Assembly: GCA_963640395.1 (NCBI GenBank)
Contig: CAVHZH010000001.1
Location: forward strand, 20,835-84,834
Reading direction: 5' to 3'
Source of the DNA: Oscillospiraceae bacterium
GTDB lineage: Bacteria; Bacillota; Clostridia; Lachnospirales; Lachnospiraceae
Length of the DNA: 64,000 bases
In this document: positions 9,872 to 41,551 of the stretch, in pieces
How positions within the stretch are numbered: position 1 is the stretch's first letter
Layout: the number at the start of each line of letters is the position of its first letter
The notes under the pieces: generated by a model
What the model was told of the DNA's origin: nothing
The model's input: only the letters and a program-made list of their open reading frames with translations
Database searches by the model: none
Made by a program: the position numbers and the translations under genes

Positions 9872-10972
9872 CTACTGAAGTGTTACCACTCCATCCATAA
9901 TCTGTTCCTCGTCCAGATTACCGTTCTCAACCTCAAATACCCGCGCATTCATATCCAGATAATTATGTGAATCAAGTACACCGTCTGATTTCAGGTGTAC
10001 GATATGAATCCTGCTGCGGATCGGCTTGAACTGGTCAATTAAATACATGAGCTGGGATTTGACCAGGTCGGTGACCGGATGGCTGACAAGCATAGTCACA
10101 TCATAGATGCTGTTCCCATACAGCTCCGCCAGATCTTCACGGTCTACACTGCTCATATAATCCTGCATCACGTTACGCTCAAGGATCAGTACCTCCTCGC
10201 CGAGCACGATCTGGGCAATCCTGCCGATCGCCCGCTTTGTACCCTTCATACGGTTGAGCGAATATGCCTCCCGCACAAGCGTCCGCAGTACCTGCTCATC
10301 GCGGATATCGCAGTCCAGATCAATACCAAGCCATTTGCCGTAAGTATTTAACAGCTGCACCGGACAGGTATCCACATCCAAAAGCTCCGGTAAATGATCG
10401 ATATCCTGCTGGAAATCATTATAAATACTCGAAAAAATTGACAGATAGCGGTGGAAAAAGCTGCCCCGCTCCCTGTATACCTCCGGAAACGTCTGCATGA
10501 AATTGTCACCGCCCCGGTCTGCACGGATCTGCTTTACAAAGCCTTTGCCCTCACCGACAAATTCTATCACAAAATAGAGATAACGTCCTTTCTGCTCATA
10601 CATCAGGATATCGTTGTGATTGACATGCTTTACAGCATCCACACGTGTGAAAAATTCGTGTTTTAATGCTGTCGGCTCGTTCGGATCACATAGGAAATCA
10701 TCGATCCGCGTCATCTCACCCTCCCGGTAAAACATCGTTTCATTGAGCGCCCGCACATAGACGTAGCAAGTCATATCTTCCGGATACTGTGTGTCAAACG
10801 AGAGCCTGCCCCAGCTACCGTCATTCGTCGCACAATCCAGTGCCCGCACATAAATCGCATGATATGCCTCATGCTCATTCATCACGAGCGTACCGTCCTG
10901 CTCCATCGTAAAGCCGACAGTCAGACCCTTCTCTAAGCGATTTTTTTTAATGGAATAACATATACCAGCCAT
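9872..10972 (-). CDS. CIS baseplate wedge / phage tail P2-I-like protein
   Basis: LPELLDVDTCP..LLNTYGKWLG...LVREAYSLNRMKGTKRAI...FKPIRS. Confidence 0.8.
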   Translation of the reverse strand: MAGICYSIKKNRLEKGLTVGFTMEQDGTLVMNEHEAYHAIYVRALDCATNDGSWGRLSFDTQYPEDMTCYVYVRALNETMFYREGEMTRIDDFLCDPNEPTALKHEFFTRVDAVKHVNHNDILMYEQKGRYLYFVIEFVGEGKGFVKQIRADRGGDNFMQTFPEVYRERGSFFHRYLSIFSSIYNDFQQDIDHLPELLDVDTCPVQLLNTYGKWLGIDLDCDIRDEQVLRTLVREAYSLNRMKGTKRAIGRIAQIVLGEEVLILERNVMQDYMSSVDREDLAELYGNSIYDVTMLVSHPVTDLVKSQLMYLIDQFKPIRSRIHIVHLKSDGVLDSHNYLDMNARVFEVENGNLDEEQIMDGVVTLQ

Positions 10973-10990
10973 CGTATTCCCCCTTACCTG

Positions 10991-39731: not shown

Positions 39732-39745
39732 CCTATCAGCCCTCC

Positions 39746-41551
39746 TTAGGCTTCCTCTGACTCGTCAATTCCCTTTCTTTTGACAATTGCATATGCATAA
39801 GTACAAATAGACGGATAATCTGCACAGTAGATCAGTATCTCGTAGACACCTTCCTTAGCAGGCGATGTGTAGATACCATCCGAGCTGATCTCACCGCTTC
39901 CCGGCTCTGTCAGCTCATATACGATACTGCAGCTATCCATATGATTATATTTTACACCAAAGTAATGGCTCTCCTTTGTTCCCATCACAACAGTCGGTGT
40001 CTCTGCCGCGATGCTCTTGCCTTCCATGTCCTCCGGAATTCCAAGATCATTGCCTGCCGGGAACTTGATCGCTACCCAGCGGTAGGAAAGTACAAGATAA
40101 TCAACATTCTGCAGCAGCTTCACTGCTACGACAAAGCTGCCCTTGTCGTTGAGCACCTTGACCGCAGTCTCGGCATCGACTGCCAGATTCGCTCCGTCAC
40201 GGAACAACTCCGGATTGCCGTATACTGTGCTCTTGGCATTTGCTCCGAGCGCCGCATCCTCCGATATATACTCATATCCGATATCCACATAGACATTTCC
40301 CTTGCCCAGTCCATGCATAATCTCACCGGAGTAGCAGATATCGCCCTTACGCGCCGTATCCCCGAGCGGGATCTCCAGAATACCTGTCGCCACCTCGGGT
40401 ACATTTGCCCGTGAGGTATGCTGCTGTTCGCTCTCTGCCTGTACAGAAACGACCTTGTCTCCGCTTCCCAGCTCTACTTCTTTCTCGAAATAGTCGAGAT
40501 ACTCATCACGCAGCATCTCCTGTGCCGGAGCGGTAATATATTTTTTGATATTTGTTTCCCGGACTTCTTCTATAATATAAGCACTCTCTGTGCGCACCAG
40601 ACGCAGGTCTGCCAGACGGATAAAATCACTCGTGCCTCCAATATTTTTCATTTCAAGGCTCATACGTCCGATCTCCCGGCTGACAAGCTCTCTCGGCTTG
40701 CAGGATGCCAGAAGAATCTTCAGTGAAAAGCCGGTCACGGCAGCGACCGGTGCATCATCCAAAAATGCGCTCGCAGATCCGCTCTTTAAAATCACGTTTG
40801 TATCAACTGCTGCTGTCTCCTGCGTATTCATCCAGAATTCACGCTCGAGCACTTCGCCCTCGGTCAGTGCCACATCCTCAACACTGATCTCAAGCTCATG
40901 TCCGCCATCGGCTGTCATAAACGCCGGAACCTGCAGGATGCCGCGATAGGTCAGCCGCTTTGTGTCAGCCGTCAGCTTGGTCACGCGGACAACGACCTTT
41001 ATATTTTTCCCTTTACATGCGGTCGCCGGCATCACCAGCTCCACACGATAATTGTCATCATTTAATAATATACCGCTTGTGAGGAACTCTGTCTCCATCT
41101 CGAATTCTTCAGGAATGTCCTCTTTATCCATCAAAAAGAGCTGATAGCTCTCGCTGATGCGGTTATATTCATAGTCCTTATCGGATTCTTTCTGATTCAC
41201 CGCATAGACTGCATGAACCGCATCCTCTTTATATTTCAGACACAGGCTCACATCGTTGGTGCGCAGCTGCTCAAAACCATCTACCGCAGACAGCTTCTTG
41301 ACAACCGATGCATCGACTACGATCTCTCTGCCCATGCCGTCTATGGCAACACCACTCTCAACCAGAATCGAGAGATCATCTAAGCTGAATACACCACAGC
41401 CACATACGATCCCTGATCCGTACATCAGATTATTAACAAATCTACGCTTGTTGTTAAAATAGTTCTGCTCCGCCTGAAAATCTGCACTGGTAAGCATCTT
41501 ACCTGAATAGTAGCGATTTCTTTCAAAAGGATATAATTGATTATTATTCAT
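39746..41551 (-). CDS. CIS tail-fibre/baseplate-attachment-like protein
   Basis: N-terminal ERNRYYSGKMLTSADFQAEQNYF...YGSGIVCG...ESGVAIDGMGREIVV, typical of eCIS fibre N-domains; Ig-like C-terminus; start reassigned to ATG 41551. Confidence 0.75.
   Translation of the reverse strand: MNNNQLYPFERNRYYSGKMLTSADFQAEQNYFNNKRRFVNNLMYGSGIVCGCGVFSLDDLSILVESGVAIDGMGREIVVDASVVKKLSAVDGFEQLRTNDVSLCLKYKEDAVHAVYAVNQKESDKDYEYNRISESYQLFLMDKEDIPEEFEMETEFLTSGILLNDDNYRVELVMPATACKGKNIKVVVRVTKLTADTKRLTYRGILQVPAFMTADGGHELEISVEDVALTEGEVLEREFWMNTQETAAVDTNVILKSGSASAFLDDAPVAAVTGFSLKILLASCKPRELVSREIGRMSLEMKNIGGTSDFIRLADLRLVRTESAYIIEEVRETNIKKYITAPAQEMLRDEYLDYFEKEVELGSGDKVVSVQAESEQQHTSRANVPEVATGILEIPLGDTARKGDICYSGEIMHGLGKGNVYVDIGYEYISEDAALGANAKSTVYGNPELFRDGANLAVDAETAVKVLNDKGSFVVAVKLLQNVDYLVLSYRWVAIKFPAGNDLGIPEDMEGKSIAAETPTVVMGTKESHYFGVKYNHMDSCSIVYELTEPGSGEISSDGIYTSPAKEGVYEILIYCADYPSICTYAYAIVKRKGIDESEEA

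Follow-up and report, generated by a model that had tools for sequence, protein, structure and literature searches.

The locus described here raises the question of how a contractile injection system (CIS) encoded by a Gram-positive gut bacterium is put to work: released as particles, kept free in the cytoplasm or docked at a fixed place in the envelope of the cell that makes it. It lies in the genome of an Oscillospiraceae bacterium placed in the Lachnospiraceae (2.18 Mb, 99.7% complete), of which a stretch of 64 kilobases (kb) was analysed (G000:C1:20835-84834; this whole stretch is called the window, and coordinates follow its numbering unless another stretch is named). A preliminary description of this DNA had pictured a complete CIS, encoded together with an envelope module and without lysis genes, as a membrane-anchored machine resembling type VI secretion systems (T6SS). 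Our analysis favours, with a probability of roughly 0.55, a clade-II CIS with its own envelope module, docked to the producer's cytoplasmic membrane by T6SS-like anchoring. The kind is known, namely a CIS with a membrane anchor; the novelty lies in the module, in how large it is and in its having a TolC-fold member.

The genes of interest, all of them on the minus strand in the open reading frame (ORF) list of the window, form a closely spaced array. In the order of transcription it starts with a Cis13-like gene, followed by the genes for five membrane or exported proteins, a Pvc16-type cap, a protein of 256 amino acids (aa), a DUF4280 PAAR-like protein and the sheath; it continues with the tube, a tail assembly chaperone, a repeat-extended tube-domain protein, an 838-aa protein and two CIS_tube proteins, and closes with a VgrG split over two genes, gp25, two baseplate-J-type proteins and Tail_P2_I/Cis12, ending at 9872. 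The tight packing attributed to this operon was confirmed, since the 21 gaps between 9872 and 41551 have a median of 25 base pairs (bp) and a maximum of 225 bp. Gaps in the envelope module measure 6-39 bp, with one 4-bp overlap, and the module is bordered by the Cis13-like gene and the cap gene. Counted with the Cis13-like gene it comprises six genes, given here from the first transcribed to the last, with transmembrane abbreviated to TM:

39746-41551, minus strand: Cis13-like baseplate-periphery protein, 601 aa from the ATG (CIS13_fam 1.3e-27, residues 52-189)
38886-39731, minus strand: predicted tail-anchored membrane protein, 281 aa, with a cytoplasmic domain of ~235 aa and a C-terminal TM segment at 236-254 (hydropathy)
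36442-38877, minus strand: putative four-TM sensor, 811 aa (AlphaFold2 pLDDT 80; HAMP profile 6.6e-04; Foldseek matches to cyclases 2e-08, TMt up to 0.75)
35174-36406, minus strand: predicted bitopic MORN protein, 410 aa, with a basic N-terminus of ~66 aa inside, a TM segment at 67-95, and MORN repeats and a C-terminal domain outside (MORN 2.1e-09; hydropathy)
33084-35177, minus strand: protein of TolC/outer-membrane-factor fold, 697 aa, with a signal or anchor and two C-terminal Ig-like domains (OEP 9.6e-05; 22.7 bits, cut-off 22)
30036-33068, minus strand: exported protein, 1010 aa, with an N-terminal anchor or signal (TM 31-49), a helical ectodomain, a linker and a C-terminal domain of ~190 aa (hydropathy)

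The last five are the membrane or secreted proteins that the preliminary description had seen inside the operon, and hydropathy agrees with it on all of them. The predicted topology of the module places ~2300 residues outside the membrane and ~640 inside; it comes from hydropathy and sequence reading, with AlphaFold models for the 811-aa and 697-aa proteins only.

The docking reading draws on the way in which this module is inherited. Among 400 other genera of the family, each represented by one genome, the sheath was found in 38 and the TolC-like protein in 18, all 18 belonging to the sheath-positive 38 and none to the 362 sheath-negative genomes. A scan of one genome per prokaryote species located a relative of the TolC-like protein at 316 loci; among the best 80 of these, the sheath was present at all 61 loci whose downstream flank reaches at least 8.5 kb, and the Cis13-like gene at all 65 whose upstream flank reaches at least 7 kb, while the MORN protein and the 1010-like protein were each found at 79 of the 80. 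Gene order was followed in 50 kb around the sheath of 18 relatives, chosen from the 38 for long contigs and therefore subject to selection bias, by tblastn, blastp and family hidden Markov models (HMMs). All 11 relatives with 64-80% sheath identity carry the Cis13-like, tail-anchored, MORN, TolC-like and 1010-like genes in the order of the window, and 8 of them the 811-aa sensor as well. At 51-61% sheath identity, five of seven relatives have the trio of Cis13-like, tail-anchored and MORN genes downstream of Cis12, not upstream of the cap, so that the linkage of this core trio has outlived rearrangement of the gene order. The MORN protein occurs in all 16 relatives that have a baseplate. Among adequately covered loci there is thus none in which the module occurs without the CIS, and the conservation of envelope genes with the CIS, on which the preliminary description had made its proposal depend, is what we find. 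This strict co-inheritance of membrane and surface genes with the CIS suggests, short of proof, a machine docked at a fixed port of the Gram-positive envelope.

Several individual loci deserve mention beside these counts. The entire module of G226 is found 39 kb upstream of the sheath, on the same strand. An ORF of 3353 aa and ~27 kb of genes stand between its 1010-like and cap genes on contig C5 (L058/L059/L019; ORF at 14929-24990 of the joined stretch), and G181 has a 1139-aa ORF of no assigned family at the same site, which may be a cargo or effector slot. G316, one of the five rearranged relatives, has in addition its TolC-like and 1010-like parts fused in a single ORF of 1558 aa (L039:3356-8032); this fusion suggests that the two proteins act together outside the membrane. 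Double TolC/1010 HMM matches in the 80-locus scan were discarded as an artefact of the fused G316 ORF in the HMM. Two genomes, G021 (G021:C7:38997-40733) and G318 (G318:C164:33933-35663), contain a sheath of 53% identity and a tube gene only; genome-wide searches of both with the window proteins as queries gave no baseplate-J or Cis13-like match, and they may hold a different or decayed system.

Most related loci are recorded as Lachnospiraceae, Acetatifactor, Hungatella, Eubacterium, Eisenbergiella, Dorea or Roseburia, from the gut of humans, mice and ruminants, and four come from isolates rather than metagenome-assembled genomes (Dorea sp. D27 and Lachnospiraceae bacterium CE91-St61, 48-33 and B55_55_CC_H). 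Of these, Dorea sp. D27 and CE91-St61 are in the subgroup that lacks the 811-aa sensor. Three loci with the full module (L095, L106 and L109) are in bins labelled Bacteroidaceae, Bulleidia and Alistipes onderdonkii, and are probably mis-binned or mislabelled Lachnospiraceae contigs. These records, together with the lack of an Omp85/BamA match in the 99.7% complete genome, accord with the preliminary placement in a monoderm gut Firmicute of Lachnospiraceae type; the control search did match in seven diderm genomes.

Turning to the module proteins themselves, the Cis13-like protein is the member expected at the baseplate. Its start was set at the ATG at 41551, residue 45 of the longest ORF (TTG at 41683), and relatives align from about there. 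Across 15 loci its C-terminal 200 aa are better conserved than the middle (column identity 0.44-0.49 vs 0.28-0.39), a pattern that, as far as sequence can tell, is unlike the variable receptor-binding tip of a tail fibre. In all the relatives and loci compared the gene is followed by that of the tail-anchored protein. Lax-threshold Pfam scans of all alignment members and a PDB profile search gave nothing usable for the Cis13-like protein, and large-scale cluster (atlas) searches returned only unnamed Bacillota clusters. A complex prediction for its residues 190-645 with residues 1-235 of the tail-anchored protein scored 0.16 against a mark of 0.32 and is evidence neither way. An apparent fusion of the two proteins in G027 and G215 was rejected, as these are adjacent separate genes with a stop codon between them.

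The tail-anchored protein keeps its C-terminal TM segment in the window and in all 11 orthologues scanned. Its family comprises 696 clusters at 50% identity in a HMMER search of 1.84 billion representatives, and among the best 150 of the 696 all but one are stand-alone proteins of 150-344 aa; the sole longer match (P0125, 490 aa) has a carbamoyl-phosphate-synthase-like N-terminus, looks chimeric and was not accepted as a fused form. A separate search for longer homologues gave none, which is weak evidence. There is a weak lead to a kinase-like fold, or to a pseudokinase fold of the EssB (YukC) type, in PDB profile matches to PAK1 and MLCK (E 0.008-0.03) and in the atlas, where clusters of Pkinase and YukC have feature scores of 0.90-0.91, with an hhalign probability of 11% and no Pfam match in any of 15 family members at lax thresholds.

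The 811-aa protein is modelled with a beta-rich ectodomain and an alpha/beta sensor-like domain outside, and with a HAMP domain, a class III cyclase fold and a helical domain inside. Its cytoplasmic half is the conserved half. No Pfam cyclase family matched, and the first metal-binding Asp, located by eye against the expected motif, appears replaced by Ser. The orientation of the MORN protein, with the N-terminus in and the repeats out, is predicted from charge bias.

The 697-aa protein has the two-repeat, long-helix TolC fold, both repeats match OEP/TolC profiles, and these two repeats are the sole OEP matches in the genome. Its AlphaFold2 model (pLDDT 77) matched TolC in Foldseek at 2.6e-09 over ~480 columns (TMt 0.55-0.62), TolC profiles were matched in the PDB as well, and the N-terminus resembles a Sec signal, or else an anchor that stays uncleaved. 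Where TolC has its barrel strands, this protein has short segments of ~16 and 31 residues, which are of low model confidence yet invariant in the family. Given these short, low-confidence segments and the lack of an Omp85 match, the protein does not qualify as an outer-membrane beta-barrel of a diderm envelope. The likeness to TolC and other outer membrane factors extends over the whole fold, whereas the host without an Omp85 match, the short barrel segments, the extra Ig-like domains and the lack of an adjoining pump partner set it apart. The 1010-aa protein, for which Pfam, NCBIfam and PDB-profile searches gave no match, contains a (GSGT)n linker of ~110 residues (residues ~710-818), which by its predicted length could carry the C-terminal domain across the cell wall.

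Downstream of this module a complete CIS gene set of the Afp/PVC type (Cis1-16) is present. Profile scans of the window ORFs with Pfam, NCBIfam and PHROGs returned, on the minus strand and in the place given by the preliminary description, the sheath, the tubes, the split VgrG, the PAAR-like protein, gp25, two baseplate-J proteins and the cap. The parts are, again in the order of transcription:

29406-29996, minus strand: Cis16/Pvc16 cap, 196 aa (Pvc16_N 5.3e-29)
28629-29399, minus strand: 256-aa protein between the cap and PAAR-like genes (no family match in Pfam, NCBIfam or PHROGs)
28226-28618, minus strand: DUF4280 PAAR-like spike tip, 130 aa (PF14107 8.8e-30; sole copy in the genome)
26471-28171, minus strand: sheath, 566 aa (Phage_sheath_1 1.9e-20; Phage_sheath_1C 4.9e-17)
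25910-26407, minus strand: inner tube, 165 aa (Phage_T4_gp19 2.6e-32; TIGR02241 1e-30)
25401-25802, minus strand: tail assembly chaperone, 133 aa (phrog_508 5.2e-08; 49-82% identity in 17 of 18 relatives)
23313-25175, minus strand: tube-domain protein (residues ~25-175) with a basic tandem-repeat extension of ~440 aa (phrog_4542 tail tube 4.4e-05; weak gp19)
20756-23272, minus strand: Q/E-rich helical protein, 838 aa, tape-measure candidate (position and composition)
18938-19795 and 19861-20730, minus strand: two CIS_tube proteins, 285 and 289 aa (PF19266 2.9e-13 and 2.3e-15)
17536-18891, minus strand: N half of VgrG, 451 aa (NF033848 positions 219-388)
16674-17492, minus strand: C half of VgrG, 272 aa, with the OB domain (NF033848 positions 366-528; Phage_base_V 3.9e-21)
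16184-16651, minus strand: gp25-like sheath initiator, 155 aa (GPW_gp25 1.7e-16)
10991-13087 and 13105-16242, minus strand: baseplate-J-type wedge proteins, 698 and 1045 aa (Baseplate_J 8.8e-07; TIGR02243 1.3e-22 and 3.4e-24; PHROG baseplate wedge families)
9872-10972, minus strand: Cis12/Tail_P2_I baseplate protein, 366 aa (Tail_P2_I 4e-09; CIS12_fam 3.4e-17; TIGR02242 7.8e-17)

The set combines a single-protein sheath, a gp19-type tube, gp25, baseplate-J, VgrG and a PAAR-type tip with the Pvc16 cap, whose Pfam family we take to be the former DUF4255, and with an AAA+ ATPase encoded further downstream. The split of VgrG is identical in the relatives, and the two CIS_tube proteins are probably tube initiators. 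The 256-aa protein was recovered in 11 of the 18 relatives and at 58 of the 80 further loci with an HMM that combined the window protein with orthologues found by blastp (E <=1e-3). No family match was obtained for the 838-aa protein in Pfam, NCBIfam or PHROGs; only its N-terminal ~350 aa are conserved in relatives, where its length ranges from 530 to 1137 aa, and its position and composition make it a candidate for the tape measure. Relatives of the repeat-extended tube-domain protein measure 143-842 aa (orthologues lie, for example, at L008:1318-3159 and L053:15671-18199). Their extension is hypervariable, absent in some (143-202 aa) and reaching ~670 aa in others, although a C-terminal tail motif, W-P-x-x-R/K-S-A...F-L, is common to them; the extension could serve as a ruler, a tether or cargo.

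The Afp15-like ATPase named in the preliminary description is real, but it lies outside 9872-41551 and runs off the left end of the window. It is set apart from the baseplate genes by a regulatory block, beyond which two plus-strand genes precede it:

9441-9791, minus strand: STAS protein (Pfam; gene after Cis12 in 10 of 18 relatives)
7642-9414, minus strand: MatE transporter fused to an RsbW-type HATPase_c_2 domain, an unusual fusion (Pfam)
6543-7625, minus strand: weak GNAT match, 360 aa (Pfam)
4432-6564, minus strand: dCache and SpoIIE PP2C phosphatase with TM segments (Pfam; strong PP2C match in 4 of 18 relatives)
3979-4413, minus strand: RsbW-like kinase (Pfam; gene in 6 of 18 relatives)
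3979-9791, minus strand: extent of the whole partner-switching block (Pfam)
1-1865, minus strand: AAA+ ATPase, Cis15/Afp15-like, of which the N-terminal 621 of 804 aa lie in the window (AAA 6.2e-28)

The full ORF of the ATPase (L003:2286-4700) has AAA matches of the CDC48/VAT type in the PDB, and a homologue occurs in the loci of 13 of the 18 relatives. The partner-switching trio of STAS protein, HATPase_c_2 kinase and PP2C phosphatase is present together directly downstream of Cis12 according to Pfam. As the STAS gene follows Cis12 in 10 of 18 relatives, the block suggests post-translational control of the CIS; partner-switching control of type III secretion in Bordetella is a precedent.

Comparison with solved structures places the sheath near a membrane-bound system. 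In a ranking of PDB profiles the best match was 9ezm (4.5e-108), followed by 8bky and 8bl4 (1.3e-97 and 4.7e-95) and, far behind, by PVC, the Anabaena thylakoid-anchored CIS (tCIS), Afp and 7adz (~1e-43 to 1e-48), a pyocin (2.9e-15) and T4. The structure 9ezm comes from Halogeometricum borinquense, whose T6SS-like CIS (Zachs et al. 2024, PMC11566945) is described as bound to the cytoplasmic membrane in cryo-electron tomography, as acting in contact-dependent killing and as having a conserved membrane protein that predicts this mode; the same source assigns the archaeal system to clade IIa and gives the Cis11 proteins of Bacillota as the closest relatives of archaeal Cis11. The Lachnospiraceae locus resembles it in having two Cis11-type genes with Cis12 and Cis13, a single-membrane host and conserved membrane proteins found only with the CIS. 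The archaeal candidate anchor, however, is one six-TM protein, with no complex seen outside the membrane, whereas the Lachnospiraceae module has five such proteins, ~2300 residues of which are predicted to lie outside, and its host adds a peptidoglycan wall that would have to be passed. The archaeal cluster carries toxin-immunity pairs, none of which was recognised in the Lachnospiraceae locus.

The Anabaena tCIS (7b5h; sheath match 4.5e-46) is likewise a membrane-anchored clade-II CIS with Cis13, but its anchoring to an internal membrane is described as relying on extensions of baseplate proteins, without a separate envelope module. With the canonical T6SS the locus would share the logic of a baseplate-periphery protein that links the wedge to a membrane complex and of post-translational firing control. 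There, TssK-TssFG sits on TssJLM; Pfam and NCBIfam scans of all cluster proteins scored no TssJ, TssL, TssM, ClpV or two-subunit (TssBC) sheath, the TssE model reached 26 bits, below its cut-off of 53.2, and the Lachnospiraceae system is not a member. A 2026 catalogue groups the Tail_P2_I systems of Bacillota and Actinomycetota in an 'eBAP3' fibre class and likens the fibres to TssK and Tail_P2_I to TssG (PMC12923769). By analogy, the Cis13-like protein would belong to eBAP3, with which the locus shares a Tail_P2_I baseplate, an N-terminal shoulder-type attachment domain of ~200 aa encoded beside the baseplate genes, and the phylum. The catalogue takes its systems to be extracellular particles whose receptor-binding tips vary, whereas the Lachnospiraceae protein has a conserved C-terminus and an adjoining gene for a tail-anchored protein.

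Put together, these observations allow a mechanism to be proposed. The Cis13-like protein, in a TssK-like role, would tie the wedge (two Cis11-type proteins and Cis12) to the tail-anchored protein by the latter's cytoplasmic domain, and it may also bind the conserved cytoplasmic half of the 811-aa sensor. A wall-spanning or surface structure at the firing site might be made up of the helical barrel of the TolC-like protein with its Ig domains, the ectodomain of the MORN protein and the 1010-aa linker protein. Assembly or firing would be gated by the 811-aa sensor and the STAS/RsbW-like/PP2C block, and contraction would drive tube and spike through the envelope at the docking site. Within the docking reading we lean towards outward firing from a living cell over killing of the producer, although such firing is something we would call possible rather than probable. 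Equally tentative is the full picture of a T6SS-like machine in a monoderm, which would be the first of its kind, with a TssK-like link, a pseudokinase-like anchor, a wall port of TolC-fold, MORN and linker proteins, a trigger made of sensor and partner switching, and outward firing.

In favour of docking speak the complete CIS, the presence of the module in the same array, their co-inheritance, the linkage that survived rearrangement, 9ezm as the nearest sheath, the conserved Cis13-like C-terminus and sensor cytoplasmic half, the likeness of eBAP3 to TssK, the lack of Omp85 and the lack of lysis, head and packaging genes in the stretches scanned. Other points weigh on the opposite side. No result shows contact of the baseplate with any module protein, and the lumen of TolC is too narrow for a CIS tube, so that the TolC-like protein cannot itself be the conduit. 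The 18 relatives were picked by hand for long contigs and the flank counts come from the best 80 of 316 loci, which biases the sampling. Unlinked peptidoglycan hydrolases exist in the genome, Amidase_2 on contigs C124 and C19 and GH25 on C10. No toxin-immunity pair was recognised and no toxin family scored in the window, where proteins without a family remain; orphan spike or PAAR islands were likewise not found in the genome, which has a single DUF4280 and a single Phage_base_V protein. The next-closest solved relative, the Streptomyces CIS of 8bky and 8bl4, is described as cytoplasmic and as killing its producer, and even the membrane-anchored Anabaena tCIS is described as lysing it. Lastly, the eBAP3 proteins of Bacillota have been read as tail fibres of extracellular CIS (eCIS), and a receptor-binding fragment of a Paenibacillus eBAP3 redirected PVC particles to human cells (PMC12923769).

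The alternative that survives best is an intracellular CIS like those of Streptomyces or Anabaena, which would assemble in the cytoplasm and fire into the producer's own membrane in a regulated death, with abortive infection or programmed lysis as examples of the outcome, and in which the membrane module would combine a stress or phage sensor with a CisA-like recruitment adaptor. We consider it unlikely, yet it accounts for a locus rich in sensors (the 811-aa HAMP protein, dCache-PP2C, STAS and RsbW-like proteins), for the lack of recognised toxin-immunity pairs and orphan spike islands, and for the Streptomyces sheaths as the second-best solved matches. The structures 8bky and 8bl4 are cited in a Streptomyces CIS paper (PMC10066040), and further work describes that CIS as cytoplasmic and without a fibre/Cis13 gene; its bitopic membrane protein CisA, with an outer domain of ~160 residues, is encoded where fibres usually are and is needed for contraction and for killing of the producer (10.1101/2024.06.25.600559; PMC12237407). 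The S. coelicolor system (class IId) thus shares with the Lachnospiraceae locus a monoderm host, the second-best sheath match and a bitopic membrane protein beside the baseplate genes. It is, however, described as free in the cytoplasm with one adaptor and no Cis13, whereas the locus studied here has a Cis13-like gene and a six-gene module whose ~2300 conserved extracytoplasmic residues, including a TolC-fold and a long-linker protein, far exceed the outer domain of CisA, and its best solved sheath match is an outward-acting archaeal system. Among the cluster proteins there was no NCBIfam match named CisA, the CisA sequence itself not having been compared.

Still less likely, in our view, is a conventional eCIS released by lysis through unlinked genes, with the Cis13-like protein as a short tail fibre that binds targets and the membrane proteins devoted to release, immunity or an unrelated envelope role. 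The gene set is eCIS-like in its Pvc16 cap, AAA+ ATPase and single-protein sheath, Firmicute CIS loci have been catalogued as eCIS in earlier work, and both the published fibre reading of eBAP3 (PMC12923769) and the Amidase_2 and GH25 genes elsewhere in the genome would fit such a particle. Nevertheless, a lysis cassette was found neither in the 64-kb window nor in the adjoining 20.8 kb on the left. No capsid, terminase, packaging, holin or endolysin gene scored among the window ORFs of at least 60 aa, from which small holins could escape, in agreement with the preliminary description, and lysis genes just left of the window, which by that description would have refuted its proposal, were not seen either, since the 18 ORFs of at least 100 aa in that flank included no head, packaging or lysis gene. 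Moreover, the Cis13-like C-terminus is conserved across 15 loci, not variable as receptor-binding tips are, and a linkage of five membrane or exported proteins to the CIS that withstands rearrangement would be left without a role.

An R-type tailocin or a decayed prophage tail, to which the scores of phage-tail families on sheath, tube and baseplate proteins might point, is very improbable in view of the Pvc16 cap, AAA+ ATPase, DUF4280 and CIS_tube proteins as CIS hallmarks, the pyocin sheath at 2.9e-15 against 1e-40 to 1e-108 for CIS sheaths, the lack of detected head, packaging or lysis genes, and genes that are all intact and conserved across many genera.

The Cis13-like gene is the 5' edge of the island, close to where the preliminary description had ended it, because the genes upstream of it in six scanned relatives (22 ORFs) are housekeeping genes (PolC, ATP synthase) and two-component systems, besides assorted enzymes and unknowns; no toxin family scored among these 22 ORFs. 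Between 38000 and 43500, promoter-like sites stand at chance level (9 found, 8.6 expected) and terminator-like sites number 9 against 3.1 expected, one of them at 41789-41775 between the GNAT and Cis13-like genes, which is not decisive. The 20.8-kb left flank ends in housekeeping genes (POR, ilv, leuS). A comparison with a genome of the same genus (G370), made for an empty site, did not find the right flank, and the left flank matched only housekeeping genes (74-76% identity) beside a contig end.

Some features of the surroundings were noted in passing. The locus is surrounded by seven GNAT-like genes, 283-360 aa in length (41811-63714; L002:12970-16766), and most come just downstream of the gene for a large protein of no assigned family (1846, 927, 593, 535 and 512 aa). 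A tandem duplication at 58519-63714 comprises two such pairs, 535 with 313 aa and 512 with 324 aa (66% and 81% identity), and in G058 a large protein of no assigned family and a GNAT stand beside the CIS. The 1846-aa protein (42785-48325) has an ABC1/UbiB-type atypical kinase domain at ~1157-1540 after a 1150-residue N-terminus of no assigned family, and its gene overlaps the next GNAT gene by 4 bp. Neither this kinase-like protein nor the 325-aa GNAT was matched in the stretches retrieved from the 18 relatives, and they are not counted in the CIS system. At 56632-58422 a GGGtGRT-family protein (3.5e-192) adjoins a NifU-like protein; both are unrelated to the CIS.

The literature searched yielded no account of a CIS that is membrane-anchored or T6SS-like in a monoderm bacterium, although catalogue supplements may list these loci, nor one of a TolC-like partner of a CIS. 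A 2025 paper presents the T6SS as belonging to diderm bacteria and some archaea, and a metagenome survey of the same year describes human-gut CIS as almost all from Bacteroidota.

CIS are so far known bound to the diderm envelope as T6SS, bound to the archaeal membrane, free in the Streptomyces cytoplasm or released as particles. The locus offers a testable list of parts, comprising a module of conserved membrane and surface proteins, a TolC-fold protein whose host has no outer membrane and a sensor and regulators of its own, for asking whether and how a thick-walled Gram-positive cell shoots through its own wall, and experiments are feasible since some related loci come from isolates. Across Lachnospiraceae from the human, mouse and ruminant gut the system is widespread. 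As its hosts are abundant commensals and human-gut CIS have been surveyed as almost wholly a matter of Bacteroidota, it may be an overlooked player in microbial competition or in the control of cell fate in the gut.

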